Of a stretch of DNA of 56,422 bases, positions 330-17,234 are shown piece after piece. Position 1 is the first letter of the stretch; the number at the start of each line of letters is the position of its first letter. The position numbers were made by a program, and so were the translations under genes. The notes beneath the pieces were generated by a model that searched no databases, was not told the origin of the DNA, and saw only the letters and a list, made by a program, of their open reading frames with translations. Source of the DNA: Thermodesulfovibrio sp. (GTDB lineage: Bacteria; Nitrospirota; Thermodesulfovibrionia; UBA6902). The stretch lies in assembly GCA_026982355.1 (NCBI GenBank), contig JALSHG010000074.1:1-56422 (forward strand). The letters are read 5' to 3'.

Positions 330-1835
330 ATGAATTCCGTCCCAAACGACAATAACTGCGTTGAAAAGACGGGAGATGCCCTCCGGACCGTCATAGTTGT
401 TGAAGACGACGAGGGGCTTAATCGTCTGATCCTGAAGACCCTCATAAGAGAAGGTTTTTCCGCCAGGGGAGTTCCCACAGGGGCCCGCGCTCTTAAACTC
501 GCTGCTGAAAATACGAGAGCCATCCTGCTGCTGGATTACCTTCTGCCTGATATGACCGCCGAGGACATCATACTGACACTCAACCGGAAGAATCTCAAGG
601 TGCCGTTCGTGATCATGACCGGACACGGTGATGAGAAGACCGCCGTTAAGCTGATGAAGCTCGGAGCCATGGACTACATAATCAAGGAAAAAGGTATACT
701 GGAACTGCTTCCAACAGTCCTCAGACGGGTATTAAATGAATTAAATACAGAACAAAAATTAATAGATGCCCGGAATGCATTGCGGAAAAGCGAGGCAAGC
801 CTTGCCGAAGCCCAGCGTATCGCCGGGATAGGGAATTATACGTGGGACACCCGAAAAGATGAATTATCATGGTCTCACGGCACATATCTTATTTTCGGAG
901 TCGACCCCGCGGAATTCAGGCCTGACTTCAAAAAATATGTGGATTTCATTCACCCCGAAGACCGGAGGCGTGTTACTGAAATTTTCAAAAAGGCTCTTGC
1001 CAGAAAGACAAAATACAATGTCGAGTATCGCATAGTCTTGCATGACGGCACAGAGCGCGTACTGCACGATGAGGGGCAAATCAGTTGCGATGAACGCAAC
1101 AAGCCGGCCTGCATGTTCGGGGTGATCAGGGACATCACGGAGCGCAAAAACCTCGAAAAGGCCATCTTTGAAATTGAAGAGAGGGAGCGCCGGCGTATCG
1201 GATACGAATTACACGACGGCCTCGGACAACTCCTTACAGGCATATCATTTAAAAACTGGGGGCTGGAGCGCAAACTGGAGAAAAGCTCTCTCGAGGAAGC
1301 CCGGGAGGCGGCCGAGATATCGATGCTTATAGCAGAGGCAAAAGAACAGGTCAGCCGCCTGTCAAAGGGGCTTTCACCCGTGGAAATGGACAAGGAAGGT
1401 CTCATGGCGGCACTTGAAACACTCGCGCTGAATAATGAGAAGATGTTCGGGATACCATGCGTTTTCAGATGCGACAAGCCCGTCTTTGTGCATAATAAAG
1501 CTGCAATCGTACAGCTCTACCGTATTGCCCAGGAGGCTGTAACCAATGCCGTGAAACACGGCAAGCCGGATTACATCGAAATCAGCCTTGCAAGAAAATA
1601 CAGCAAAATCACGATGTCGATAAAAGACAACGGCGTCGGCATCTCCGGAAATCCGGACGGCGCCAACGGAATGGGGCTTAAAATCATGCGTCACAGGGCC
1701 GGGATCATCAATGCATCTTTTGATGTACGGCAGAATGCCGGAAAAGGCACGGTGGTCACGTGTGTCTTCCCGGATAATTCCGGGAAAACCGGGACGCCGG
1801 AAGATTCCGCGTTCGCGAAGAAACAATCCACGTGA
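330..1835 (+). CDS. Hybrid sensor histidine kinase, REC-PAS-HisKA_3-HATPase (NarX/UhpB type)
   Basis: N-terminal receiver (VVEDD...LLDYLLPD...MTGHG...K), PAS/PAC (GNYTWD...YRIV..DG), HisKA_3 H-box ELHDGLGQLL, QEAVTNAVKH, DNGVG, GMGLKIM. Start placed at ATG 330 rather than TTG 300. Confidence 0.88.
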   Translation: MNSVPNDNNCVEKTGDALRTVIVVEDDEGLNRLILKTLIREGFSARGVPTGARALKLAAENTRAILLLDYLLPDMTAEDIILTLNRKNLKVPFVIMTGHGDEKTAVKLMKLGAMDYIIKEKGILELLPTVLRRVLNELNTEQKLIDARNALRKSEASLAEAQRIAGIGNYTWDTRKDELSWSHGTYLIFGVDPAEFRPDFKKYVDFIHPEDRRRVTEIFKKALARKTKYNVEYRIVLHDGTERVLHDEGQISCDERNKPACMFGVIRDITERKNLEKAIFEIEERERRRIGYELHDGLGQLLTGISFKNWGLERKLEKSSLEEAREAAEISMLIAEAKEQVSRLSKGLSPVEMDKEGLMAALETLALNNEKMFGIPCVFRCDKPVFVHNKAAIVQLYRIAQEAVTNAVKHGKPDYIEISLARKYSKITMSIKDNGVGISGNPDGANGMGLKIMRHRAGIINASFDVRQNAGKGTVVTCVFPDNSGKTGTPEDSAFAKKQST

Positions 1836-2768: not shown

Positions 2769-2801
2769 CTCCCCTGCCGGCTTATGCAACATTAAGGTTT
2801 A
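2769..2801. repeat. Repeat family A end (CTGCCGGCTTATGCAACATTAAGGTTTA)
   Basis: Matches 55915-55941 and 53506-53533; contains the stop codon of the minus-strand kinase. Confidence 0.7.
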
Positions 2802-4840
2802 TCCAGCATCTCCCTTATCTTTCTTACAAGCTTTTCCGCCAGTAAAGGTTTTGACAGGAAATTTATCCCTTCTTCATAGCATCCCTTCCTGTTCAGTTCC
2901 TCGATGGAATAACCGCTCATGAAGAGCGCTTTGATACCGGGTTTCATACTTTTTATTTCCTCATATACCTCTTTGCCGTTCTTCGCCGGCATGACCACAT
3001 CAAGCAGGAGGAATTCAACATCGTCCTGCTTTTCCATGAATTTCCGGACGGCATCCTCTCCGTTTGCGGCCTCTATGACATTGTAACCGTTTTTCTCGAG
3101 TATGACCGCCGTAAGCCTCCTCAGGTCCTCATCGTCCTCCGCCACAAGCACTGTTTCCGAGCCGCGCCTGGGCATTGCCGGGGAGACCGTTTCTTTTTTC
3201 TCATTCGCCGGGCCGCTGAGGGGAATGTAGATTTTAAACGTTGTTCCCATGCCCGGTCCGGTGATAACATCTATATAGCCTTTGTGCTGCTTGACTATGC
3301 CGTATACCATGGAGAGCCCGAGACCTGTTCCCCTGCCGATTTCCTTGGTTGTAAAAAACGGATCGAATATTCTTTCTCTTACATGTTCGTCCATGCCTCT
3401 TCCTGTATCCGTAACGGTTATCATCGCAAACCTGCGGTGTTCTGCCCCGCCGGAGGACAACAGGAACTTTTTATCCGGCTCGGCCGAACTCGTGGCTACA
3501 GTCAGTGAGCCTCCCTCGGGCATGGCATCCCTTGCGTTTGTGGCGAGATTCATCAGGACCTGGTCTATCTGGCCGGCGTCGGTCATTATAATCAGATCCT
3601 CATCTGAAAGCTCGACCTTCAGCTCTATATCCTCCCCTAAAAACCTCTCCAGAATCCCCTTTGCGTTTCTGATGATGTCATTCAGGTTTTCCGGGCTGGG
3701 ATTGTAAACCTCTTTTCTGCTGAATGTAAGAAGACCCTGTATGAAGACCGCCGCTTTTCTGGCGGATGACAGCAAATGATCCAGATACCTGCTTGCCGGT
3801 TCTTCCCTGCCGACTCTCTTCTGCAACAGATGTGCATAGCCGAGTATCGTGCTGAGTGTATTGTTGAAGTCATGTGCTATACCCCCCGCAAGCGTTCCGA
3901 TCGCCTCCATTTTCTGTGAGTGTCTCAGTTGTTCTTCAAGCTGCTGCTTTTCCACCTCTCTTTTCTGCAATGACGCGGCCATATCATTAAAGGCTGTTGC
4001 AAGCCTGCCTATCTCATCCTTTGTCTCAACCGGTATACTTCTGAAAGACCCGGAGGTCTCTATCTCCTTGACTCCTTCAGTCAGCTTGCCGAGCGGCCTT
4101 GTTATCCCCCCGACTATAAAATATGCTATGACCCATCCGGGAATTATAAAGACAACCGGGATGAAAATACTTTTCAGGAGCAGGTCTTTCAGGCTGTTTC
4201 TCATGTGCTCGGTAGTGAATATGATCCTGACGAGGCCGATCAGATTATCCTTTCTGCCGGTTGAGTCTTTTTCAAAGAAAAGCGCCTCTTCTTCAGAGTA
4301 TCCTTCAGCGGAATATGTCTCCCCGGACATAACCGGGGACCAGAATTCTATCCAGTCGCGGCCCTCAAAATACAGCGGTGATCCGGATTTTACGAACATA
4401 TCGATTATTTCCTCCCCGGGAAAAAGCCGATCATCTTTGAAGTACAGCGGTCCGGCGGCGTCCGTTCCCGCCTTCTCAGCACTTTTCAGCGCCCTGAGTT
4501 CCCTCCCGTCGAGACTGAAGACCTCCACCATTATCACTCCCTTGCTCTGCATAATGGCTTCCACCGGGTCTCTGAGCAGGTCGTCGCTCTCTGCAAACAC
4601 GCCGAGCCGCGCACTCTGGGCAAGATGCTTTGAAAACTCTTTTCCCTCATATATGAGATTCTGCTTGAGCGTCTTGCTCTGGTAATAGATGAAAAAGGCC
4701 GTGAAGGCAATGTAAAAGGTCACAAGAAAGATTGTAAACAGATAGAATATCTTTGCACCGAAACTTTCACGGTTGTATTTAAGAAAGCTCAAGAATCTCA
4801 TATGGCTCCCGGCATGATCAGGTCTTGCAGGTTTTTTCAC
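2792..4840 (-). CDS. Membrane hybrid histidine kinase (TM-periplasmic-TM-HAMP-HisKA-HATPase-REC; CckA/NtrB-like core)
   Basis: Two hydrophobic segments, HAMP (ITRPL...DEIGRLATAFNDM), QKMEAIGTLAGGIAHDFNN, NLATNARDAM, DPFFTTK..GTGLGL, C-terminal receiver. Start is either GTG 4840 (GTGA overlap with upstream stop) or ATG 4801. Confidence 0.9.
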   Translation of the reverse strand: MKKPARPDHAGSHMRFLSFLKYNRESFGAKIFYLFTIFLVTFYIAFTAFFIYYQSKTLKQNLIYEGKEFSKHLAQSARLGVFAESDDLLRDPVEAIMQSKGVIMVEVFSLDGRELRALKSAEKAGTDAAGPLYFKDDRLFPGEEIIDMFVKSGSPLYFEGRDWIEFWSPVMSGETYSAEGYSEEEALFFEKDSTGRKDNLIGLVRIIFTTEHMRNSLKDLLLKSIFIPVVFIIPGWVIAYFIVGGITRPLGKLTEGVKEIETSGSFRSIPVETKDEIGRLATAFNDMAASLQKREVEKQQLEEQLRHSQKMEAIGTLAGGIAHDFNNTLSTILGYAHLLQKRVGREEPASRYLDHLLSSARKAAVFIQGLLTFSRKEVYNPSPENLNDIIRNAKGILERFLGEDIELKVELSDEDLIIMTDAGQIDQVLMNLATNARDAMPEGGSLTVATSSAEPDKKFLLSSGGAEHRRFAMITVTDTGRGMDEHVRERIFDPFFTTKEIGRGTGLGLSMVYGIVKQHKGYIDVITGPGMGTTFKIYIPLSGPANEKKETVSPAMPRRGSETVLVAEDDEDLRRLTAVILEKNGYNVIEAANGEDAVRKFMEKQDDVEFLLLDVVMPAKNGKEVYEEIKSMKPGIKALFMSGYSIEELNRKGCYEEGINFLSKPLLAEKLVRKIREMLDKP

Positions 4841-5826
4841 CTTTTAACCGGCCCCGCTCTCTTGAGAAATTCGCCGGCCACGGTTACTCCCAGCTTCCTG
4901 GCCGTCTTGCGGTTTACCGTCACAACCGCCCTTCTCGCATCGGCTTCTTTAATTTTCCTTACATCCATTCCCGACAGAATCTTTTCAGTTATTTCCCACG
5001 CCTGCATGCCTATGTCGGCGGCATCTATGTCGAACGAGATCAATGCACCCATTTCAAGGTATTTATCGGAAAACGTAATCACGGGTATCCTGTTCTCGAA
5101 AGAAAAAAGGAACAGGAGCTCGACAGTCTCAGAGGTAACAACGGTAATGTCGGGCAGCATCCAGAAGGCGTCTATCTTTCCCTTGAGAGACTGCAACAGC
5201 CCGGGGACGTCCTTCGGGTTTTGAATCTCTCCTGCAATTAATACGATACCTGCTTTTTCAGCGGCGGCACGGAGCCTCTTTACAAAATCTCCCGTCCTTG
5301 CCGGGTTATATAAGAGACCTATCGTGCTGATATCCGGTATGGCCATCTTTAAAAGGGACAACTGTTTCTCCGGATTAATGTACAGGCTGACACCTGTAAT
5401 ATTATCACCGGGGGCAGCAACCGGGGAATTGAGAATCATGAAGTAAACGATCGGCGCGTTTTTGATGCTCTTGATCCTGTTAAGCGCATCTATCCCTATT
5501 GCAAGAATAACCGCGGGGTCTGTTTTACGGACCGCCTTCAGGATATCCTCTCCTTCCGGTTCAGAGACGAAAAATTGTTTGACATTGCAATTGCACGCCT
5601 CCTTAAATCCATGCAGCGCATCATTGTACGGCTTAATATTAATGCTCTGCACGGCAACAATATCGGCGGCAACAACTATATCGCGGCAGAATAAAACGGA
5701 CAGCATAATGAACACGCTGCATGCAAATCCCCTTATTCCCCGTCTCTCAAGGACCGTCCGCCGGGCACCCCCGCGGCATCGGTCCGCACCTGCCTTGCTT
5801 TTGAAAGAAACTGTAGCCCGAATCAT
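4837..5826 (-). CDS. ABC-type periplasmic substrate-binding protein (ABC_sub_bind-like), no permease nearby
   Basis: Signal-like hydrophobic stretch, then NITGVSLYI.PEKQL, TIGLLYNP, DAFWMLPD, GALISFDID..DIG.QA motifs typical of this family. True start may lie downstream of 5826. Confidence 0.8.
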   Translation of the reverse strand: MIRATVSFKSKAGADRCRGGARRTVLERRGIRGFACSVFIMLSVLFCRDIVVAADIVAVQSINIKPYNDALHGFKEACNCNVKQFFVSEPEGEDILKAVRKTDPAVILAIGIDALNRIKSIKNAPIVYFMILNSPVAAPGDNITGVSLYINPEKQLSLLKMAIPDISTIGLLYNPARTGDFVKRLRAAAEKAGIVLIAGEIQNPKDVPGLLQSLKGKIDAFWMLPDITVVTSETVELLFLFSFENRIPVITFSDKYLEMGALISFDIDAADIGMQAWEITEKILSGMDVRKIKEADARRAVVTVNRKTARKLGVTVAGEFLKRAGPVKR

Positions 5827-5880
5827 TGTAAAATGTTAACATCAACCGGGATTTATTTTCCCGATTTTTTTATTATATAT

Positions 5881-5980
5881 TAAACTTTCAATGTTGCATA
5901 AGCCGGCAGGAGAGACAGGCGTAAAATTTTCGCCGGACCCTCCGCCCTCGGGCGGAGCCTTTATGCCGCTGGAAGGTAAA
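5881..5980. mobile_element. Repeat family A full-length MITE-like copy in the divergent promoter region
   Basis: TAAACTTTCAATGTTGCATAAGCCGGCAG ... TTTATGCCGCTGGAAGGTAA, with internal similarity to the 32951 copy (GGCGTAAAA...CCGGA). Confidence 0.65.
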
Positions 5981-6051
5981 CTTAAGCCGGATTACATGTA
6001 TAATAAGGGAGCCGTCCGCTGAAAACCGGAGTATTGATATTTGGATATGCC

Positions 6052-7953
6052 ATGAAAGCAATGGTACCGGGCTTTTTTTTAATATCTTTAATATTTGTGC
6101 TTTCCGCCGCATCCGCCTTTGCCCAGTCCGAGGAAGAGATGAGGATTCTCCGGATGTTCTATAAGGAGGATGAACTTGTCGTTACACCGACAAGGACTCC
6201 GAAACCCGTCTCACAGGTTGCAGAGAATATCACCGTCATCACTGCAAGGGAGATGGAAGAAATGAATGCCCACACGCTTGCCGAGGTGCTGGAAAGGGCG
6301 ACGGGCCTGTTCGTTGAGTTCTTCGGGCATGATTTCGGCAGCGACGCCAATATATACATCCAGGGTTCCGACGAAAACCACGTCCTGCTGCTTATAGACG
6401 GGGTGCCCTGGAATCTGATGAACAACGGAAAACCCCTGGTGAATTCGATTCCTGTGAAAATAATCCGGCATATCGAAATTATCAAAGGTCCGGCATCATC
6501 ATCGTGGGGCTCATCCCTCGGAGGCGTGATAAATGTCGTTACAAAGGATGCGGGAAACAGGAGCAGGCCCGGCGGCACGGTCGGCGCCTCATACGGCGAA
6601 AGAAACACGCAGGATTACAGCGTTGAAGTCTCGGGCAAGGCAGGAAATGTCGGCTATTACCTGCAGGCAGGCAGGCAGTATTCCAGCGGCCTGAGAAACG
6701 GGCGCTATTTCAAAAGCGACAGTTTATACTCAAAGTTCAGCATTTCCGTCGCGCCGCGCACACATTTCGTGTTGACCGCCGGGTACAACGAGCCTCATAT
6801 AAATTATGGCGACATGCCGGCTGTCGATCTGACATCCGCTGCTTTAAGCCGCACCTTTTTTGCAACGGCGTCCATTTCCGCAGAGCTTGCGGAATTCCTC
6901 AGTCTCGAGGCATCCGTCCACACTCTAAAACAGAAATTCGTGCAGAACAACAATGAACTCGCTACAGGTGATCTGTACATGGATGCCGTCTATGACGAAG
7001 AAACCACAGGGGCCAGCGGCAAGCTCATCTGGAGAGACAAAGTGCATACAGCGGTTGTGGGCGCTGACATCAGCGATGGGCATCTCGACCAGACGATCAC
7101 GGCCGGACGTTTTCTGCAGTCATTCGGAGCGCCGGAGAGTTCCGAAACAACCCCGGCAATGGAAAAGTGGGCGATCTTCGCCAATGATACGATAACTATC
7201 GGCAGATTCTCCATAACGCCGGGCATCAGGTTCGATCACAACAATATCAGCGGAGACTTTACAAGCCCGAGCCTCGGGGCCACATACAGACTCGGCGAAC
7301 AGACCATCCTCCGGGCATCCGTGGCAAGGGGATTTACCATACCGCTCCTGATATACACATCCGGCGCGCTGTATATTGACCCCAACCCGGACCTGAAGCC
7401 GGAAAAGGTATGGTCCTACCAGGCAGGCGTGGAATCATGGGTGTCGGACTATTTCCGCGTCAAGGCCGCCGTCTTCCATCACAACATGAATGACGCCCTC
7501 GTGGATGCTGCGCCTCCTACTGAAAACGCGTTATACGTCAACGAGGGCAATATAAAACGTGACGGGATCGAACTCGATATAAAGACAGCGCCGTTTAATG
7601 CTGTCTCGCTTAAAACCGGATTTGCATATGTTCATAAAAGGCTTTATCTCGGGGAAACGACATCCGAAGACAACTATGCCTGCAATCTGGCCGTCAGGTA
7701 TGACGACAACAGGTCATTATCAGCCCGGCTTGCCGGCAGCTATATATGGTGGGACCGTGCAAAAGAGGATAACGCAAAATACAACACGGTTATATGGGAT
7801 TTAAACATCAACAAAACAATTTACTCCACCGGGGGCACGAACAGCGAATTTTTCCTGACCGTCCATAATATCTTCAACGGCTCCCATTACACCTTCGACC
7901 AGCGCAAAAATCCGCGCAGATGGATGGAGGCAGGACTGAGATTAAGTTTTTGA
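6052..7953 (+). CDS. TonB-dependent outer-membrane receptor
   Basis: Signal peptide (SAFAQ), plug motifs VVTPTRT...ENITVIT, VLLLIDGVP, IEIIKGPASSSWG..LGGVINVVTK, NPDLKPEK, C-terminal LRLSF. Confidence 0.93.
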   Translation: MKAMVPGFFLISLIFVLSAASAFAQSEEEMRILRMFYKEDELVVTPTRTPKPVSQVAENITVITAREMEEMNAHTLAEVLERATGLFVEFFGHDFGSDANIYIQGSDENHVLLLIDGVPWNLMNNGKPLVNSIPVKIIRHIEIIKGPASSSWGSSLGGVINVVTKDAGNRSRPGGTVGASYGERNTQDYSVEVSGKAGNVGYYLQAGRQYSSGLRNGRYFKSDSLYSKFSISVAPRTHFVLTAGYNEPHINYGDMPAVDLTSAALSRTFFATASISAELAEFLSLEASVHTLKQKFVQNNNELATGDLYMDAVYDEETTGASGKLIWRDKVHTAVVGADISDGHLDQTITAGRFLQSFGAPESSETTPAMEKWAIFANDTITIGRFSITPGIRFDHNNISGDFTSPSLGATYRLGEQTILRASVARGFTIPLLIYTSGALYIDPNPDLKPEKVWSYQAGVESWVSDYFRVKAAVFHHNMNDALVDAAPPTENALYVNEGNIKRDGIELDIKTAPFNAVSLKTGFAYVHKRLYLGETTSEDNYACNLAVRYDDNRSLSARLAGSYIWWDRAKEDNAKYNTVIWDLNINKTIYSTGGTNSEFFLTVHNIFNGSHYTFDQRKNPRRWMEAGLRLSF

Positions 7954-8027
7954 GAAAATCCGCCGTATATACAGGGATGTAACCCTGCTGTACGCAGGGG
8001 TAACCCATATGGTAAAAGGAGGGCAGG

Positions 8028-8129
8028 ATGGAAAGGGAAGAAATCGTAGTACTGGACAGTGGTCTCGATACGGAGGACATGGAAAGTCTCGGTCCATGCT
8101 GTAAAGGGGCATCTGCACCATTGCGATAG
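8028..8129 (+). CDS. Geopeptide-like RiPP precursor, 33 aa: MEREEIVVLDSGLDTEDMESLGPCCKGASAPLR
   Basis: Hand-translated; strong RBS AAGGAGG at 8016-8022; acidic leader (IVVLDxG) and Cys-Cys core resemble the geopeptide family; lies directly before a radical SAM/SPASM gene. Below the ORF-track cutoff. Confidence 0.85.
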   Translation: MEREEIVVLDSGLDTEDMESLGPCCKGASAPLR

Positions 8130-8137
8130 CAACGGAA

Positions 8138-8164
8138 AGAAGGGGGGGCGGCGCTCCCCCCTTC
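8138..8164 (+). other. GC-rich hairpin between precursor and maturase
   Basis: GAAGGGGGG-GCGGCGCT-CCCCCCTTC inverted repeat with no U-tract; likely mRNA stabiliser or attenuator. Confidence 0.55.
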
Positions 8165-8181
8165 CTGAAAAGCGCTCCACA

Positions 8182-9483
8182 ATGAAACTCTCCCGTTACA
8201 TAAAGATATTTCCCTTTGAAAAAAAGCCGGGATACGTGCTCCTTTACTCTACCGGAAAAGCATCCGCGGCCCTTGTGAAAGAAGAGACGCGCGATTCCAT
8301 CGGGAAAGGCACGCTGTCCCCGGAAAACAAGGCAACGCTGTTGAAGCTCGGCATGATCGTACCGGACGGTGAAACGGAAAAGAGGGAGGCCGCCGGCTTC
8401 ATGGACAGGATCAACAGCAAAAATTCCGGGCTGAACATATCCGTGATCCTCAACCTCGATTGTAATTTCGACTGCATATACTGCTATGAAGACGGCATGA
8501 AGGGCAGACTCTACATGAGTGATGAGACGGCCGGCCTTCTGACGGCTTTCATCAAAAAGAAATTCAGGCCGGGGAAGAGGTCGCTGAACATAGATTTTTA
8601 CGGCGGGGAGCCGCTGCTGAGCACGGGCCTGATCAAATCCGTTTCCGCAGAGATGAAGTCTTTTGCACAAAGCCGGGGCGCCTCCTATACATTCACACTT
8701 GTTACAAACGGCTCCCTCTTTAAGAGAAAAATTGCGGAGGACCTGGTTTCGATGGGACTGAAAGGCGTTAAGATCACCATAGACGGGCCTCCGGAGATTC
8801 ATAACGCCTGCCGTCCTTTCAAATCAGGCGCCGGCAGCTTTGACACGATTATAAAAAACATAAATGAAACGTGTGACATCGTCAATGTTGCCGTAGGCGG
8901 CAATTACCGGGAGAGCAATTTTGAAAAATTTCCCCTGCTCATGGATCATCTGGAACGCGAAGGGCTTACACCGGAGAGGATATACGAGTTGAAATTCGAT
9001 CCTGTGATGAAACGCGCCGGCGGCGACAGGCCCGCGGCCGATTACACGGACGGTATCATGACCGTAAACGAGCCGTGGGTGATACGGGCGGGGACAGCCC
9101 TGAGAGAGCAGATATTGAAAAGGGGATACATGACCCCGAAGATCACTCCCAGCCCCTGCCAGGTGGAGATAACGGACTCTTTTGTCGTAAACTTCGACGG
9201 CGTTATATACAAGTGCCCTGTGTTCATCGGCAGGGACGGCTTCAGCATAGGAGACCTGAAGAATGGCGTGAGGGATTACTCCGCTGCATATAACCTCGGC
9301 ATCTGGAAAAATGAAAAGTGTGTGGAATGCGAATATCTTCCCCTTTGTTTCGGAGGCTGCAGGTACATGTCCTATGTGCGGGACGGCGGTATGGATAATG
9401 TTGACTGCAAGAGAGCATACCTTGATGCCGCGCTCGAGTATCTTGTCAAGCAGGACATACAGTATGCACGGAAAACAATATAA
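8182..9483 (+). CDS. Radical SAM/SPASM peptide maturase (geopeptide maturase-like)
   Basis: CNFDCIYC (CxxxCxxC), FYGGEPLL, VTNG, ITIDG; SPASM cysteines C...YKCP...CVECEYLPLCFGGCR...C. Start MKLSRY at ATG 8182; the ORF-track start 8059 overlaps the precursor. Confidence 0.92.
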   Translation: MKLSRYIKIFPFEKKPGYVLLYSTGKASAALVKEETRDSIGKGTLSPENKATLLKLGMIVPDGETEKREAAGFMDRINSKNSGLNISVILNLDCNFDCIYCYEDGMKGRLYMSDETAGLLTAFIKKKFRPGKRSLNIDFYGGEPLLSTGLIKSVSAEMKSFAQSRGASYTFTLVTNGSLFKRKIAEDLVSMGLKGVKITIDGPPEIHNACRPFKSGAGSFDTIIKNINETCDIVNVAVGGNYRESNFEKFPLLMDHLEREGLTPERIYELKFDPVMKRAGGDRPAADYTDGIMTVNEPWVIRAGTALREQILKRGYMTPKITPSPCQVEITDSFVVNFDGVIYKCPVFIGRDGFSIGDLKNGVRDYSAAYNLGIWKNEKCVECEYLPLCFGGCRYMSYVRDGGMDNVDCKRAYLDAALEYLVKQDIQYARKTI

Positions 9484-9552
9484 AGGTTAATGCGGCATAA
9501 ACGTGCAGACTCCTCTGTCCCGCCAGCGGTGTTTTTATGCACCTGCAAGTTA
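9481..9552. mobile_element. Repeat family A copy
   Basis: TAAAGGTTAATGCGGCATAAACGTGCAG ... GTTTTTATGCACCTGCAAGTTA; begins at the rSAM stop codon. Confidence 0.65.
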
Positions 9553-9694
9553 AATAATTCCGTTCTCCCGGACTCCCCCGGGCATTTCCATGCAACCGCG
9601 TAACGCCGTCCGGCATTGGGGCATCAAGCTTGATTTAATTAATAAAATTTTTTAATAATAAGTATTATTTACATAAAGGAACAGACTCCGGGAC

Positions 9695-10267
9695 ATGGGG
9701 AAAATCCTGATAATCGATGATGACAAAGACATACAGTCCGTTCTTTCGGATATCATAAGAGCCGAAGGATACGAAACTGTTATTGCCGGCAACGGCAGAA
9801 CAGCGCTCAGGGAAATTGCAAAATCTCCGCCGGACGTGGTCCTGCTGGATATCAGGCTCCCCGGGATGGACGGGATGAAGGTCCTCGAGAAGATCAAAAA
9901 TACGGACAAAAACATGATAGTCATCATGCTTACCGGTTACGGGGACATCAAGGACGCCGTACAATCAATGAAAATGGGGGCCTTCAACTATATCACCAAG
10001 CCGTTTGAAAATGAGGAGATCATACTGAATATCAAGGAAGCCCTGCAGACACGCAATTCCGCCTCCGGAAAGCTCTCCCACAGGGAAAAAGAAGTCCTCA
10101 GATGGCTGAAAAAAGGTAAAACATCCTGGGACATTTCGGTAATTCTCTGCATCACCGAAAGAACCGTGAACTTTCATATCAAAAACATCATGCAGAAGCT
10201 CGATGCAGTAAGCAGGACCCATGCCGTCGTAAAGGCAATCGAGATGGGACTGATCAACGGCACATAG
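9695..10267 (+). CDS. Response regulator: NtrC-like receiver fused to LuxR-type HTH
   Basis: ILIIDDD...LLDIRLPGMDG...MLTGYG...YITKPF, then LSHREKEVLRWLKKGKTSWDISVILCITERTVNFHIKNIMQKL. Confidence 0.9.
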   Translation: MGKILIIDDDKDIQSVLSDIIRAEGYETVIAGNGRTALREIAKSPPDVVLLDIRLPGMDGMKVLEKIKNTDKNMIVIMLTGYGDIKDAVQSMKMGAFNYITKPFENEEIILNIKEALQTRNSASGKLSHREKEVLRWLKKGKTSWDISVILCITERTVNFHIKNIMQKLDAVSRTHAVVKAIEMGLINGT

Positions 10268-10285
10268 GAAAGCCGGACATTCTCG

Positions 10286-10403
10286 GAGCCTCTTGCAAAA
10301 GTGTGAAGTCATTTCGACCGGAGGGAGAAATCTTTTGGTATCGATGATGCACAAGACCTCTCTCTCCGCCGGAGGTGACAGACAGAGGACTTTTCCTGGG
10401 GCC
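10286..10403. mobile_element. Repeat family B MITE-like element, copy 2
   Basis: GAGCCTCTTGCAAAAGTGTGAAGTCATTTCGACCGGAGGGAGAAATCTTTTGGTATCGA...GACAGACAGAGGACTTTT; right end degenerate. Confidence 0.75.
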
Positions 10404-10661
10404 CCTTCAATAATAACCGTTAAACCCTGAACTTTGAGCTCAATCCTTTCCGGCAGAGAGTCCGCCCGTTTATGCATGTCAGGTGTCACGCCCGCCATAG
10501 GATAATCCCCTATATTCACTACAAGAAAACCCCTCTGACAAAAACATGATTTCCCCTCTGTAGAAAAATTTCTTCATCTCGATAAGAAGAGTACATGCAG
10601 CCGGATATTTTCCGGTCTTATCCGGCTGGATAAAAGATTTAAACAGAAAAGAGGCGACAGC

Positions 10662-11873
10662 ATGACAAATAACCGCAAGGTATATGTAAAGATAGTACTG
10701 CTATTCCTGCTGACCGTAATCCCCTCGTTTATAGAAAACAATCTTTTCAGAATTTCCTGTGCCTTCATTATCGGTTCATCTGCCGCCGCGGCCGGTATCG
10801 CACTTATGAAGAGACACGCGAAAGATCTCGAAGACAGGCTCGACACCGACAGAAAGGAATACGTGGCAGGGGTAGAGGCCGTGATAAAGAACATGCACGA
10901 GACCCTCCGGGAAAAATTACAGCTCATTCCCGTATTTGTAAACCAGCTTCAGGAAGTCACGCAACAGACCGAATCAGCCGCCATGGATATCGGTGAGCGT
11001 TTCATGAATATTGTCGAAAGGGCGAGAAATCAGTCCGCGGAGGCATCAAATGCCTTTATAAAGCTTGCCGGAGACGGGGGAAACAACGACGAGACGCTTA
11101 CAAAGTTGAGCAAAAAAGCGCTTTCCGATGTAATAGAGAGCCTGCAGGGCTCTGCGACCGTCACCAATCAGACACTGGGTGACATGGAGGTGATCATCAA
11201 GGCCACGGGCAATGCCAGGACAATGGTTGACGAGATCGGCTACATTGCGGAACAGACAAACCTCCTGGCGCTGAATGCGGCGATAGAGGCGGCCAGGGCC
11301 GGCGAACAGGGCCGCGGGTTTGCCATTGTCGCAGATGAAGTAAGAAAGCTTTCGGACAGGTCGAATACGGCGGCGGATGAGATCAGGAAAATAGTCACGC
11401 GCATCGAGACGGATACAAAAGAAATCTATCTGAAAACCGAAAAGAATGTCTCAAAGACCAACAGCGTCTCCACAGGAGCGGCGGAGGTGGTGGATGACAC
11501 CCTGAAAAAGATAGACGAAACGATCGGCAGGGTGAAAACCCAGCTCGATGATCTCACGAAAGAGTCCGAACTCCTTGCAAAAGACATAAGCGACATAGTC
11601 ATTTCCATGCAGTTTCAGGACATCACGAGACAGCGCATCGAACATGTGATCGAACCGCTGCTTGCGTTCAGGTCCGAGCTTGAAGACATGATAAAAAACA
11701 CAACGGATATGGGCAGAAAGATACGGCAGGGAAAAAGAAATGCTGTAAGCGGCCTGCTTGAGGACATGTATACAATGGAAGCCGAGAGAAGGGTATTCCG
11801 CGAGACAATCGAAAACGGAGCGGCCAATCAAAAAACTGCGGGGGATGAGATATGGCAAAAACAATCCTTATAG
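10662..11873 (+). CDS. Methyl-accepting chemotaxis protein, atypical, with C-terminal QFQDITRQ motif
   Basis: [36 protein letters not shown] signalling hairpin; short N-terminal hydrophobic region. Confidence 0.88.
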
Positions 11874-12217
11874 TGGATGACTCCGCCTCTATGAGGCAGC
11901 TTGTAACATTTGCATTGAAAGATGCGGGATACGAAGTTATTGCGGCAACCGACGGCAGGGACGCCCTGAACAAATTAAGCGGTGCAAAGGCGGACATGGT
12001 GGTGACCGACCTGAATATGCCCAACATGGACGGCATCGAGCTTATAAAAGAACTGCGCAGATTGCCGGCCCACAAGTTTACGCCCGTCGTCATGCTTACA
12101 ACGGAATCACAGGAGGGCAAAAAACAGGAGGGCAAGGCGGCAGGGGCCAGCGGCTGGATTGTAAAGCCCTTCACGCCTGAAAAACTCATGGAAGTAATAA
12201 AAAAGTTTATGCGATAA
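11852..12217 (+). CDS. cheY: Chemotaxis response regulator CheY
   Basis: Single receiver domain [11 protein letters not shown]...[10 protein letters not shown]...MLTTES...GWIVKPF, in che operon. Confidence 0.92.
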
Positions 12218-12290
12218 ACCTTGATGTTGCATAAACAGGCAGAGGAGTCCGCCGGAAAACCCGCGGGCGGTATTTTTATGCCACTGTAAG
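12215..12290. mobile_element. Repeat family A copy
   Basis: TAAACCTTGATGTTGCATAAACAGGCAG ... GGTATTTTTATGCCACTGTAAG; starts at the cheY stop codon. Confidence 0.7.
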
Positions 12291-12330
12291 CCGAATATGA
12301 GTTATTGAAACGGTAAAACGGAGAGCACAC

Positions 12331-12696
12331 GTGTTTGATTACAAAGCCGACCGGACGGAAGACAAAACAGTCCTGACCGTCAACGGTGAGCTGACAATAC
12401 AGAACGCCGCCGCATTCAGAGACGTACTGCTCGAATACCTGGAGAAAACAGGTCACCTGGTGCTGAACCTCGAAAATGTAACCGAGGTGGACCTGTCCTG
12501 TCTTCAGCTTCTCCGTTCGGCACAAATTACGACAACAGAACTGGACCGGCGTCTTACAATGGACGGCGGTTGTCCGGAATCATTCAGAAAGGCCGCCGCG
12601 GACAGCGGGTATTTGCGTGAGGAGGCCTGTGATCCGTCAGACTGCAACAAAAGCTGTCTTTGGACAGAGGCCGATTATTCCGGTGGAGGCGTATAG
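12331..12696 (+). CDS. STAS domain protein (anti-anti-sigma-like)
   Basis: LTVNGELTIQNAA...LNLENVTEVDLSCLQLL; typical position between cheY and cheA. Confidence 0.85.
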   Translation: MFDYKADRTEDKTVLTVNGELTIQNAAAFRDVLLEYLEKTGHLVLNLENVTEVDLSCLQLLRSAQITTTELDRRLTMDGGCPESFRKAAADSGYLREEACDPSDCNKSCLWTEADYSGGGV

Positions 12697-12704
12697 CAGG
12701 CAAC

Positions 12705-14819
12705 ATGTCAACAGCTGATCAGCACAGAGATGCTTACAGGGAAGAGGCTCTGGAACTTCTTGCAGAGCTCGAGACCTCCCTCCTCGATCTGGAGCAAAGC
12801 CCTGATGACATGGAGCTTATAGGACGTATCTTCCGGGCCCTGCATACGATCAAGGGGTCGGGCTCCATGTTCGGGTTCGAAGACATCGCCGCGTTTACGC
12901 ACGAGGTGGAGACGGTTTTCGACATTGTGCGCAACGGCGGGATGTCCGTCACAAAAGAGCTGATAGACCTCACCCTCTCCGCCGGCGATCATGTCAGGAT
13001 GATGCTCAACGCCCCCGGCTCCGGCAACCTGGCAGACACCGGAAAGGCAGGGGAAATCATAGCATCCCTCCGGAAGCTGTGTCCCGACAAAAAAGTGCCC
13101 GATACCGCACGTGCGGCATCCTCCGGGGATGATCCGGCTTCATTTCACGACGGCAAAACCATAACCTGCAGGATCCGCTTCCGTCCTCCGGGGGATATCT
13201 TCATGAGGGGAATAAATCCACTTCTCATACTGGATGACCTTCGGGCGCTCGGTGAATGCAGGATTATGGCCCAGAAAGAAGGCATCCCCGCACTTAATGA
13301 AATTAACCCCGAGTACTGCTATACATACTGGGATGCCGTCCTGACCACTAATCAGGGCATCACTGCGGTTAAAGAGATTTTTGAGTTTATCGAAGACGGC
13401 AGCGATTTAAGGATCGACATAATAGATATCATTGATGACGCCCCGTCAGACGGCCACAAGAAACTCGGAGATATCCTCGTCGAACGGGGCGATGTAACCC
13501 CGGACGACCTCCGGAAGGTGCTCGGCCGGCAGAAACGGATCGGGGAACTGCTGGTTGACGCCGATCTGGTTGACACCGGAAAGGTTGAATCAGCCCTTAC
13601 CGAACAGCAACATGTCAGGGAAGTGCAGGAAAAACACCGGAGGAACGAAACCGTATCAAGCATCAGGGTGTCGTCTGACAAGCTCGACCGCCTCGTCAAC
13701 CTCGTCGGAGAGCTCGTGACCGTGCAGGCGCGTCTTACCCGGACATCCGCATTGAGGAACGACCCCGAGCTGCTGTCGATCTCCGAGGAGGTCGAACGGC
13801 TGACCGAATATCTCCGCGACAACACCATGAGCGTGCGCATGGTGCCCATCGGAACAATGTTCAACAAATTCAAGCGCCTGGTGCGGGACCTCTCCGCGGA
13901 AACCGGCAAGGAAGTCGAAATGTCAACCGAGGGGGCGGACACGGAACTGGACAAGACCGTGATAGACAAGCTCAATGACCCCCTCGTGCACATGATAAGA
14001 AACAGCATAGACCACGGCATCGAGCCGCCCGAAGCGCGGGAGGCCATGGGAAAACCGCGGACCGGCATGCTCCACCTGTCGGCGAGGCATTCAGGCGCAA
14101 ATGTCCTGATAGAGATAACGGACGACGGGGCCGGCCTTGACCCGGAGGCAATACTTGCAAGGGCAACGGAAAAAGGTCTGGTGGAGCCCGACGCTGAACT
14201 TTCCGAAGAGGAGACCTTTGCGCTTATCTTTGAGCCCGGCTTTTCCACGGCCCGCAAGATAACCGGCCTGTCCGGCCGGGGTGTCGGCATGGACGTGGTG
14301 AAACGCAGTATCGAGGCGCTGAGGGGATCGATAGAAATAAGCAGCCGGAAGAATACAGGCACAACAATGACACTGAAAATTCCGCTCACCCTTGCAATCA
14401 TAGACGGCCTTCTGGTCAAGATCGCCGAGGAGGTTTTCGTGATCCCATTGTCGATTATAGAAGAATGCGTGGAACTGAACCGCAACGGCGCGGGAAACGG
14501 CAACGGCAGGCGCATATCGAATGTGAGGGGCGAGATAGTTCCCTATATAAGCCTGCGGGAGCGTTTCATGATAAGCGGCGACAAACCCCTGATCGAACAG
14601 ATCGTGATAACCAGGATAGAAGGCCGCCGCGTCGGCCTTGTGGTTGACCACGTGATAGGCGAGCATCAGACAGTGATCAAGACCCTGGGCAGGATTTACA
14701 GGGATGTGGAAGGAGTCTCGGGCGCGACCATCCTGGGCGACGGGAGGGTGGCCCTTATCCTGGATGTTCCGAGGCTCGTGCAAAACGTGGAAAGAGAGGC
14801 GGCCTTTGCAGGGGAATAG
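12705..14819 (+). CDS. cheA: Chemotaxis histidine kinase CheA with tandem MshEN-like motifs
   Basis: Hpt IFRALHTIKG, SIRVSSDKLDRLVNLVGELV, HMIRNSIDHGIE, GFSTA...SGRGVGMDVV, CheW-like P5 (GATILGDG). ATG at 12705. Confidence 0.95.
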   Translation: MSTADQHRDAYREEALELLAELETSLLDLEQSPDDMELIGRIFRALHTIKGSGSMFGFEDIAAFTHEVETVFDIVRNGGMSVTKELIDLTLSAGDHVRMMLNAPGSGNLADTGKAGEIIASLRKLCPDKKVPDTARAASSGDDPASFHDGKTITCRIRFRPPGDIFMRGINPLLILDDLRALGECRIMAQKEGIPALNEINPEYCYTYWDAVLTTNQGITAVKEIFEFIEDGSDLRIDIIDIIDDAPSDGHKKLGDILVERGDVTPDDLRKVLGRQKRIGELLVDADLVDTGKVESALTEQQHVREVQEKHRRNETVSSIRVSSDKLDRLVNLVGELVTVQARLTRTSALRNDPELLSISEEVERLTEYLRDNTMSVRMVPIGTMFNKFKRLVRDLSAETGKEVEMSTEGADTELDKTVIDKLNDPLVHMIRNSIDHGIEPPEAREAMGKPRTGMLHLSARHSGANVLIEITDDGAGLDPEAILARATEKGLVEPDAELSEEETFALIFEPGFSTARKITGLSGRGVGMDVVKRSIEALRGSIEISSRKNTGTTMTLKIPLTLAIIDGLLVKIAEEVFVIPLSIIEECVELNRNGAGNGNGRRISNVRGEIVPYISLRERFMISGDKPLIEQIVITRIEGRRVGLVVDHVIGEHQTVIKTLGRIYRDVEGVSGATILGDGRVALILDVPRLVQNVEREAAFAGE

Positions 14820-14923
14820 TAATGTATGGCCCGTCCCTCCCCCGCGGCTGCTCTCTTCCGGGTCGACCACGGGACAACCACCGTGTTTTTCAGGAAAGGG
14901 ACACTATCGAATTATGCGAGACA

Positions 14924-14994
14924 TAACCTTACTGTTGCATAAACCGGCGGATTCCCCTGCCCCTCCGGCGGTACTTTATGCCAATGCAAGAATA
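14924..14994. mobile_element. Repeat family A copy
   Basis: TAACCTTACTGTTGCATAAACCGGCGG ... GGTACTTTATGCCAATGCAAGAATA. Confidence 0.65.
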
Positions 14995-15020
14995 AAACTC
15001 AGGAGAGGAGGACAAAAATT

Positions 15021-17234
15021 ATGAGATGGAAGGATCTCAAAATCGGGAAAAAACTGGCGGTAGGCTTCGGAAGCATGCTTGTACTGATAACGATATCGAG
15101 TTTCGTGGGCTTCAACGGTATCCGGAAAGTAGGCCATGATCTTTTTATTGTTGGGCAGAAAGACGCCCCGGTGGTGGAAGTGGCCAGCCGCATGAAAATG
15201 GCGCTCATGATGGCAAAGGACGCAATGGAGAAATTCAAGAGCGCCACTGCCGCGATCGCCACCGACAACAAAAAGATGCTTGACGGCATAGATAAGAACT
15301 ACAATCAGTCCGTGGCCGACTTTGACCGTTTATCAGATGCCGTTCTGGAAGGCGCCAGGCTTGAGGACGGGACAACCGTCATAAAGACAGACAATAAGAA
15401 ACTTGCGGACCTTGTACGCCGGGCGGACGAGATGCACAACAAAAAATTCCAGGTCGCCGCAAGGGCACTGATGCAGACAGGCAGGGAATTACTGAACGAA
15501 AAGGCGAAAACCGACAGGGCCATGGCCGAAACCGAGGCAATCTATAACGAAGTATACAGTGACGCAGGCGCCGTGGAAGAGATGATATCCGCTGAAATTG
15601 ACAGAAGAGCTGAAAAAGCCACTATCGGCAGCAGGGCAAGGGCGATCCTGCGCGAAGAAATCCCCCTCGCCGATCTGGCGAACGAACTGAAGATAATAAT
15701 GGCCCAGAGCCGTATAGCGCTTGAAGAGTATGTTCAGGAACGTGATTTCAAGGAACTGGACAGGATAGAAAAAAAACACGCGGAGCGGGAATCCCAATTT
15801 CACGAGAATATCTCGGCGATCCTCAACGGCGGGGTCATAGGCGGCAGGACCATCATTGCGACTGACAACAAGGGTATCCGGGACGCCGTCACGGAACTGG
15901 CGAAAAACTACGATGATTACAAAGAGAAGGCAAGACTCCTCATGGCGGCTCATCGCGCGACCATTGAGAAGGCATTGGAAAGCAAAAAAGATATGGAAGA
16001 GCTGGACAGGCTCGGGGAAGAGGCGCACATCCTGCTGACAAAGGTACAGGAGGTTGCCGGCGAGGAAATGGATGAAGCCATAAAAGACGGCAACGCCACC
16101 AAGAAGAGCGCCGCCGCCATGCTCGTGGGCGTGGCGTCCTTCTCCATACTGATAGGCGTGCTTCTGGGGATAGTCATCACAAGGGGAATCACCGGACCCC
16201 TCTCAAGGGGGGTGAAGTTTGCGACAGACATTGCCGAAGGCGACCTCACGGCTCGTATGGATATAGATCAGAAGGACGAGGTCGGCATCCTGTCCGGGGT
16301 ACTGGGGAACATGGCGGCAAAACTTCGTGAAATCGTGGGAGATGTAAAGGCGGCGTCGGACAACGTGGCGTCGGGCAGCCAGCAGTTAAGCGCCAGTTCG
16401 CAGCAGATGTCGCAGGGGGCGACGGAGCAGGCCGCCTCGGTTGAGGAGGCGTCCTCATCAATGGAGCAGATGGCCGCCAACATCAGGCAGAACGCAGACA
16501 ACTCGCAGCAGACCGACAAGATCGCGGGCAAGGCCGCCAGGGACGCGCAGGAAGGCGGCGAGGCGGTTTCACAGGCGGTTGACGCAATGAAAGAGATAGC
16601 GGGGAAAATTTCCATCATCGAAGAGATAGCGAGACAGACGAACCTCCTGGCGCTGAACGCGGCCATTGAGGCTGCAAGGGCCGGCGAGCACGGCAAGGGC
16701 TTTGCGGTGGTCGCCGCGGAGGTCAGAAAGCTTGCGGAACGCAGCCAGGCCGCGGCGGCGGAGATAAGCGACCTGTCGTCTTCCAGCGTGGAGGTCGCCG
16801 AAAGGGCCGGTGAAATGCTGAAAAAGATCGTGCCAGACATACAGAAGACCGCGGAACTGGTGCAGGAGATAAACGCGGCATGCAATGAACAGAACTCGGG
16901 GGCGGAACAGATAAACAAGGCCATTCAGCAACTGGACCAGGTCATCCAGCAGAACGCGGGGGCATCAGAGGAAATGGCCTCGACCGCGGAGGAACTCGCC
17001 TCACAGGCCGAGCAGTTGCAGAACGCCATCGGTTTCTTCAAAACCGGCGACGACGGCAGGACAGTGAAAAGACACGAAACATTAAAAAGCAGAAACCTGC
17101 CCCCGCAGACACCAGTCAAAACAAAAACGGCACACATCGTGCGCCAGGAGAAAACAGAGGCGCCAAAGTCCACCGGTATCGTCCTGGACATGGACGCCAA
17201 CGATGATGCGGACGAGGACTTTGAAAAATATTAA
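15021..17234 (+). CDS. Methyl-accepting chemotaxis protein with large periplasmic domain, HAMP and C-terminal pentapeptide DFEKY
   Basis: Two TM segments, [49 protein letters not shown]-like tail. Confidence 0.93.

Follow-up and report, generated by a model that had tools for sequence, protein, structure and literature searches.

Radical S-adenosylmethionine (SAM) enzymes with a SPASM domain are chemically diverse. Among those with solved structures, 5wgg/5why carries an entry title naming thioether bond formation in sactipeptides and is taken here to be CteB, the SCIFF enzyme. Two other types of described system bear on the locus reported below, namely, methanobactin operons, with the precursor MbnA, the TonB-dependent MbnT, the periplasmic binding protein MbnE, and dedicated regulators, and the binding-protein-coupled sensor kinases LuxP-LuxQ and TorT-TorS. 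The geopeptide system is named in NCBIfam/TIGRFAMs through an enzyme model, TIGR04280 ("geopeptide radical SAM maturase," typed "hypoth_equivalog"), and a peptide model, TIGR04229 ("geopeptide"). No literature on "geopeptide," TIGR04280, or TIGR04229 was found in a search that covered sources other than subscription journals and supplements, and the family appears to be experimentally uncharacterized. The DNA analyzed here, referred to as the window, is the 56,422-nucleotide (nt) contig JALSHG010000074.1 of Thermodesulfovibrio sp. A gene for a 33-residue peptide on its forward strand, lying directly before a radical SAM/SPASM maturase gene, very probably encodes the ribosomal precursor of a geopeptide-type ribosomally synthesized and posttranslationally modified peptide (RiPP) that is modified by the adjacent enzyme. 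This reading draws on the conservation of the small open reading frame (ORF), purifying selection, the family of the enzyme, the conservation of a hairpin, and a model of the leader bound to the enzyme's RiPP recognition element (RRE)-like domain. The window peptide is a divergent member of an already named system, and since both the enzyme and peptide families are named in the databases, the find is less novel.

Against TIGR04280, the maturase scored 564 bits (E value, 2.2e-169; cut-off, 400), with residues 1 to 428 aligned on profile positions 1 to 427 of 428, and it was the single match to this model in the 2.6-Mb genome. Pfam Radical_SAM was matched with 46.1 bits and the TIGR04085 SPASM domain with 52.8 bits (cut-off, 27). 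The highest-scoring neighbor families were maturases of Cys-rich peptides (CefB, TIGR04463, Clo7bot, PapB, and the SCIFF maturase), with scores far under the cut-offs of the respective models: 172 versus 600 for CefB, 158 versus 525 for TIGR04463, 127 versus 340 for PapB, and 98.9 versus 425 for the SCIFF maturase (TIGR03974). With the SCIFF enzyme and PapB, the window system shares an RRE-like N terminus, a radical SAM core, two auxiliary clusters in a SPASM domain, and a substrate with Cys in its core. It differs from them in these family scores and in its substrate, which has two adjacent Cys residues rather than six in approximately 45 residues, as in SCIFF, or repeated CxxxD-type motifs.

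The radical SAM motif CX3CX2C (C94, C98, and C101) and seven Cys residues of the SPASM domain (C326, C345, C380, C383, C389, C393, and C409) were invariant in an alignment of 16 homologues, which was restricted to loci with the gene on the plus strand. An eighth Cys, at alignment column 304 (I292 of the window enzyme), was present in 9 of the 16 maturases and replaced by Ile, Ala, Leu, or Val in the clade of the window. Hence, judged from the alignment, ligation of the auxiliary clusters may differ between maturase subfamilies.

According to the original prediction, an unannotated 33-residue peptide with a strong ribosome-binding site lies upstream of the maturase gene and is concealed in a six-frame ORF listing by an upstream extension of the maturase frame. 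Both points were borne out. The peptide ORF was present with exactly the proposed translation and a Shine-Dalgarno site in front of it (Table 1), and the six-frame ORF at 8059 to 9483 (474 aa), which opens at a GTG, overlaps it in another frame. The maturase itself starts at ATG 8182, as the TIGR04280 profile aligns from residue 1 and this ATG is conserved in relatives. The exact peptide was absent from approximately 15 billion predicted proteins in an exact look-up, consistent with its description as unannotated. For 10 peptides looked up, 5 were present among predicted proteins, either unnamed or as "hypothetical protein." The peptide has an acidic leader (MEREE...) of approximately residues 1 to 22 and a short core running from C24-C25 to the C terminus, with no Cys elsewhere in its 33 residues; this architecture is as the original prediction described it.

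To place the peptide gene in its family, TIGR04280 loci were gathered from 61 related genomes and from a phylum-wide set of 401 genomes, of which 17 and 44, respectively, contained a match above the cut-off. Loci with upstream DNA numbered 41, with L021 and L025 (contig edges) and L027 (below the cut-off) left out. An ORF with Cys-Cys near its C terminus was found no more than 700 nt upstream of the maturase in 38 of these, and a profile search located the peptide ORF 0.7 to 0.9 kb upstream in L026 and L031, giving a total of 40/41. L046, where the profile search returned no peptide ORF upstream of the maturase, was the sole exception. The original prediction was to be given up if related maturases had no homologous small ORF upstream, and the opposite was observed. 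A Shine-Dalgarno-like motif preceded 36 of 39 homologous peptide genes.

A profile was also built from 22 standard peptides of genomes outside the taxonomic family of the window and run against every six-frame ORF of the genome with a length of 20 aa or more (n = 71,364). The window peptide was the sole hit (35.1 bits; E value, 3.9e-8), the next-best ORF having an E value of 0.38. Compared with the copy in a same-genus relative, the peptide gene carried 12.5 synonymous and 7.5 nonsynonymous changes, corresponding to a ratio of nonsynonymous to synonymous rates (dN/dS) of 0.09. The other two frames of the same segment gave 0.78 and 2.27, and both contained stops. Across the eight computable pairs among five close relatives, dN/dS ranged from 0.09 to 0.34. 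The 33-codon ORF is a conserved protein-coding gene under purifying selection.

Thirty of the 39 peptides were aligned; six with Lys-rich leaders, L024, the second L028 copy, and L045 were omitted. I6, C24, and C25 were invariant and G12 was conserved in at least 90%, giving the family pattern I-x-V-L-[DK]-x-G ... C-C-x-G-A-x-x-P. Beyond Cys-Cys, the core varied widely from clade to clade, leaving the two Cys as its only invariant residues. In the clade of the window (the window, L018 to L020, L022, and L023), the leader is acidic and of the MERE type, and the core is small and polar with a C-terminal Arg or Lys. In the dominant clade of the phylum sample, leaders are basic and cores hydrophobic or aromatic. 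A second peptide subclass was noted at six loci, in which a Lys/Ala-rich repeat of 40 to 50 residues replaces the usual leader before the same Cys-Cys core. This leader is built of K-K-K-A-T/A units and resembles histone H1. Locus L028 carries two tandem, nearly identical precursor genes (1142 to 1237 and 1335 to 1430, plus strand) before one maturase, and a strong hairpin follows only the second.

By sequence, the window peptide is homologous to the TIGR04280-associated peptides and yet fails the curated model. As elsewhere in the geopeptide system, its short ORF directly precedes a TIGR04280 gene, the product of which matches that model over its full length, and it shares the leader pattern and the Cys-Cys. 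It departs from the named system in its score under the TIGR04229 cut-off and in the acidic leader and polar core of its clade. TIGR04229 is narrow: with E values up to 1 allowed, it matched 13 of the 30 aligned peptides (best E value, 3.8e-5).

The GC hairpin that the original prediction placed downstream of the peptide gene was present, and its position is conserved in the family. With the criterion of a fold of -10 kcal/mol or stronger starting no more than 35 nt from the stop codon, a hairpin (-13 to -26 kcal/mol) was found 3' of 37 of 39 peptide genes. A T-rich tail (five or more T among the following 9 nt) followed it in 29 of the 39, giving these the look of intrinsic terminators. Among six close relatives, pairing at the position of the window hairpin was kept although the stem letters differ. 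In other parts of the family, the stem letters GAGGGAGAGC ... GCTCTCCCTC were nearly identical across genera despite very different peptides. As this conservation exceeds the needs of a generic terminator, the stem might conceivably have a specific partner, either RNA or protein. A scan of positions 7700 to 8400 against Rfam returned no known RNA family, the single match being a chance-level microRNA hit (E value, 0.95).

Between the peptide and maturase genes, the 52-nt gap contained no promoter-like site in a sigma-70 scan, and no Shine-Dalgarno-like motif was seen by eye in the 17 nt before ATG 8182. The scan also returned no plus-strand site at 7700 to 8030, i.e., no promoter of the peptide gene's own, and the peptide gene was assumed to be cotranscribed with the receptor gene in front of it. 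Over 7700 to 9800, five sites were found versus 2.4 expected, with those on the plus strand at 8921, 9630, and 9639. A smaller hairpin between the receptor gene and the peptide gene folded at -12.7 kcal/mol (z score, -1.59; 13/200 shuffles as stable), and hairpins with different letters stand at this position in L018 to L020, L022, and L023. Together with the hairpin 3' of the peptide gene, it would bracket a short peptide transcript.

The AlphaFold2 model of the maturase (mean predicted local distance difference test [pLDDT] score, 84.7) places three strands (residues 7 to 11, 18 to 23, and 28 to 33) and three helices (34 to 42, 47 to 55, and 63 to 71) before the barrel, in an N-terminal domain of approximately residues 1 to 80 that is predicted to be RRE-like and to bind the leader. 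The best matches by both sequence and fold were 5wgg/5why (fold E value, ∼1e-19), followed in fold by TigE, anSME, SuiB, and ChlB; relatives by sequence or fold also included PqqE. The enzyme-peptide complex was modeled in three runs, with the alignments of both partners, three 4Fe-4S clusters, and SAM as input. The interface score ipSAE was 0.85 (0.84, 0.85, and 0.86 in the runs) versus 0.02 for the best control, with a partner pLDDT of at least 63 and at least 66% of contacts common to the runs. The calibration mark applied to this score was reached by 58 of 80 solved complexes and 2 of 110 mismatched pairs, counts that hold only roughly here. The tightest contacts were between peptide residues 6 to 11 and enzyme residues 27 to 33 (the third strand) and 49 to 56 (a helix), while core residues 20 to 33 contacted barrel and SPASM residues, including 326, 393, and 408 to 410. 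The predicted placement is the canonical leader-on-RRE mode, and the model supports, but does not demonstrate, binding. Taken together with the enzyme family, the conserved small ORF, and the dN/dS of 0.09, the model upholds the original proposal of a RiPP precursor upstream of a radical SAM maturase.

The neighborhood was surveyed in 20 loci from eight taxonomic families, with approximately 6 kb on each side of the maturase. The 143 ORFs were called mechanically, and the 102 nearest the maturase were scanned with Pfam. A TonB-dependent receptor gene lay directly upstream of the peptide gene on the same strand in all 20 loci. A PF04392 gene was nearby in 16; none was seen in L064, L067, L073, or L062, the last of which stops at a contig edge. 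A histidine kinase gene adjoined the PF04392 gene in 15 loci, and some histidine kinase was nearby in 18; in the window, the start of the kinase gene overlaps the stop of the PF04392 gene. LuxR-type regulator genes were near the maturase in 10 loci. In five, a half-size gene of the major facilitator superfamily (MFS) type (∼185 to 219 aa), a candidate exporter, stood directly 3' of the maturase. The window carries the receptor, PF04392, kinase, and LuxR-type regulator genes and is missing the MFS gene (Table 1).

Tens of bases before the receptor gene, a palindrome, ACCTGTCA-N6-TGACAGGT, was observed in L055 to L059; it is degenerate in the window (∼5900 to 5925) and in the same-genus relative L054. 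This palindrome is a candidate operator for the LuxR-type regulator. In the window, a chemotaxis-type cluster, recognized by eye from the translations, extends from 10662 to 17234 on the 3' side of the regulator gene.

Table 1. Positions of the peptide gene, its neighbors, and related features in the window and, where a locus handle is given, in homologous loci
Feature	Position	Strand	Remarks
Hybrid sensor histidine kinase gene	2792..4840	-	Pfam: HAMP, HisKA, HATPase_c, C-terminal receiver
Periplasmic solute-binding-protein-like gene, PF04392 (ABC_sub_bind)	4837..5826	-	132.8 bits; divergent from receptor gene
TonB-dependent outer-membrane receptor gene	6034..7953	+	Plug and beta-barrel; directly upstream of peptide gene
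Small hairpin between receptor stop codon and peptide ribosome-binding site	7983-8000	+	Counterparts in five close relatives
Shine-Dalgarno site AAAGGAGGG	8015-8023	+	Ends five bases 5' of peptide ATG
Proposed precursor peptide gene, 33 aa (MEREEIVVLDSGLDTEDMESLGPCCKGASAPLR)	8028..8129	+	ATG start, TAG stop
Imperfect GC-rich hairpin	8139-8164	+	9 nt 3' of peptide stop codon
Radical SAM/SPASM peptide maturase gene, 433 aa	8182-9483	+	TIGR04280
LuxR-type response regulator gene	9695..10267	+	Pfam: receiver and GerE helix-turn-helix
Methyl-accepting chemotaxis protein (MCP)-like ORF	10662-11873		By eye; L054 counterpart matched MCPsignal
CheY-like ORF	11852-12217		By eye
CheA-like ORF	12660-14819		By eye
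MCP-like ORF	15021-17234		By eye
Half-size MFS gene	L059:7296-7859	+
Half-size MFS gene	L060:5414-5980	-
Half-size MFS gene	L061:5408-6064	-
Half-size MFS gene	L063:4250-4816	-
Half-size MFS gene	L069:5415-5969	-
Lys/Ala-rich-leader peptide	L030:2852-3004	-
Lys/Ala-rich-leader peptide	L033:1254-1421	+
Lys/Ala-rich-leader peptide	L034:2845-3030	-
Lys/Ala-rich-leader peptide	L037:1257-1427	+
Lys/Ala-rich-leader peptide	L041:2851-3009	-
Lys/Ala-rich-leader peptide	L047:174-338	+
Near-identical 3' stems			L030, L033, L035, L038, L040, L041, L043, L047, L048, L050

Several results weigh against the window peptide being a geopeptide-type precursor that is matured by the adjacent enzyme to a thioether product. 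Its score against TIGR04229 was 12 bits (E value, 0.15; cut-off, 30), outside the model, and a TIGR04229 scan of the whole genome at E values up to 10 did not report it. Judged on the single sequence, the hairpin 3' of the peptide gene is only mildly unusual: folded alone, it reached -20.4 kcal/mol (z score, -2.42; 6/200 shuffles as stable), and in its 71-nt context, it reached -24 kcal/mol (z score, -1.40; 22/200 shuffles as stable). It is followed by CTGAAAAG, a tail with one T and no T-run, and a terminator scan flagged no intrinsic terminator on the plus strand, reporting the palindrome on the minus strand only; termination may be weak in this copy. Neither an exporter nor a leader peptidase is encoded in the module of the window, and a search of the genome for the half-size MFS protein returned one weak hit (E value, 7e-4) and no close homologue. 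Complexes of SuiB with SuiA and of ChlB with ChlA have been solved, so the pass of the complex model shows likeness and may partly be memory of these structures. Finally, non-thioether SPASM enzymes (anSME, TigE, and SuiB) are among the fold matches, and the thioether call therefore rests on the invariant Cys residues and the nearest relatives.

On chemistry, the proposal that the maturase forms thioethers is about evenly balanced. It follows from the two Cys being the sole invariant residues of the core, from the nearest families and structure being Cys-peptide or thioether enzymes, and from a SPASM domain with seven Cys and, in the clade of the window, no conserved eighth; in the CteB structure, such a seven-Cys arrangement reportedly keeps an iron site free to take the thiolate of a substrate. 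It is possible, if doubtful, that the peptide is a true precursor that undergoes some other modification, such as oxidation to formylglycine, with Cys as the target as in anSME, C-C cross-linking, cyclopropanation, or the excision from it of a small cofactor or chelator derived from Cys, by analogy with the pyrroloquinoline quinone (PQQ) and mycofactocin pathways. The presence of anSME, TigE, SuiB, and PqqE among the relatives and the general diversity of SPASM chemistry speak for such an outcome, as does the wide variation of the core after Cys-Cys, and the NCBIfam model "TonB-dependent receptor PqqU" offers a precedent for uptake, although its match to the window receptor was weak. Against it stand the top neighbor families, all of which mature Cys-rich peptides, the sactipeptide thioether enzyme as the closest solved structure, and the same Cys pattern in core and SPASM domain that favors the thioether.

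Two explanations that do without a modified peptide were also weighed. Were the ORF a regulatory leader peptide, ribosome stalling at its tandem Cys codons would control the hairpin by transcription attenuation, a scheme with which the invariance of these codons, the terminator-like hairpin and T-rich tail at 29 of the 39 genes, and the lack of a promoter-like site for the downstream gene in the gap agree. The conservation, however, extends beyond the Cys codons, to the invariant I6, the nearly invariant G12, a leader pattern kept across families, and the low dN/dS. The downstream gene is not one for cysteine biosynthesis but a peptide maturase, with an RRE-like domain predicted to bind the conserved leader, and no C-rich segment complementary to the G-rich 5' arm of the hairpin, as an antiterminator would need, was seen by eye at 8090 to 8138. 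Attenuation is accordingly considered highly improbable. Even less credit is given to a chance ORF, or an N-terminal extension of the maturase from GTG 8059, with the hairpin as terminator of the receptor gene. Mechanical ORF calling does reach 8059, and 33-codon ORFs are common, with 143 ORFs of at least 25 aa at 3000 to 16000 of the window. The hairpin, however, sits 3' of the stop codon of the peptide gene and not of the receptor gene, and this explanation was refuted by the start of TIGR04280 at ATG 8182, the unique profile hit, the presence of the ORF in 40/41 loci, and purifying selection in its own frame.

For a precursor matured by the adjacent enzyme, the following course is proposed. 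The leader stretch I-x-V-L-x-x-G would add as a beta-strand to the RRE-like domain, and this docking would feed the core, beginning at Cys24-Cys25, into the active site. There, 5'-deoxyadenosyl radical chemistry would join one or both Cys sulfurs to carbons of nearby residues in thioethers of the sacti or ranthi type. The strong ribosome-binding site of the peptide gene, the lack of a Shine-Dalgarno-like motif for the maturase, and the hairpin between them would yield more precursor than enzyme, the hairpin acting by partial termination with read-through or by stabilization of the transcript. Least certain is the fate of the mature product, which probably leaves the cell, reenters through the TonB-dependent receptor, and is sensed in the periplasm by the binding protein and kinase. 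Its role could be that of a signal or of a peptide that carries metal.

The consistent tie to an outer-membrane importer and a binding-protein/kinase pair suggests that the product has its role outside the cytoplasm and is exported, reimported, and sensed. Among described systems, the methanobactin operons likewise cluster a Cys-containing precursor with a TonB-dependent receptor, a periplasmic binding protein, and regulators. The window differs from them in that its maturase is a radical SAM/SPASM enzyme, no MbnB/MbnC-type domain being found among the 102 neighboring ORFs or the window genes scanned with Pfam, and in that its binding protein, a member of PF04392, has a histidine kinase as its partner instead of an ABC importer. 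As in LuxP-LuxQ and TorT-TorS, a binding protein appears paired with a kinase, with overlapping genes in the window and the pair kept in 15/20 loci; here, in contrast, the binding protein is of the PF04392 family, the ligand is another one, and the binding-protein/kinase pair is linked with both a RiPP and a TonB-dependent receptor. No description of such a linkage was found within the scope of the literature search given above. The linkage of receptor, binding protein, kinase, and regulator to the peptide may therefore be new, although the database description of the family might already note it.

More tentatively, and with the odds against it, these parts may form an undescribed circuit of diderm bacteria, in which a radical-SAM-modified peptide is released and taken up again by its own TonB-dependent import, perceived through the PF04392 protein and hybrid kinase, and acted upon through the LuxR-type regulator. 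The peptide would be either an autoinducer that needs active import across the outer membrane or a Cys-based metallophore that is sensed in its loaded form. If so, the clade of the window, with its acidic leader and polar core, would represent a distinct "dialect" or specificity group.

Because the peptide gene escapes ORF callers as well as the curated peptide model, it is undercounted when RiPPs of this lineage are inventoried, and the geopeptide maturase is widespread in the phylum, as its detection in 44 of the 401 sampled genomes indicates. The invariant adjacent Cys residues offer a compact substrate, with a core of approximately 10 residues, for defining the activity of a SPASM enzyme. 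For orphan RiPPs, what the product does is usually the hardest thing to establish, and in this family, the linkage to the receptor in 20/20 loci, together with the binding-protein/kinase pair, provides a testable hypothesis of uptake and sensing.

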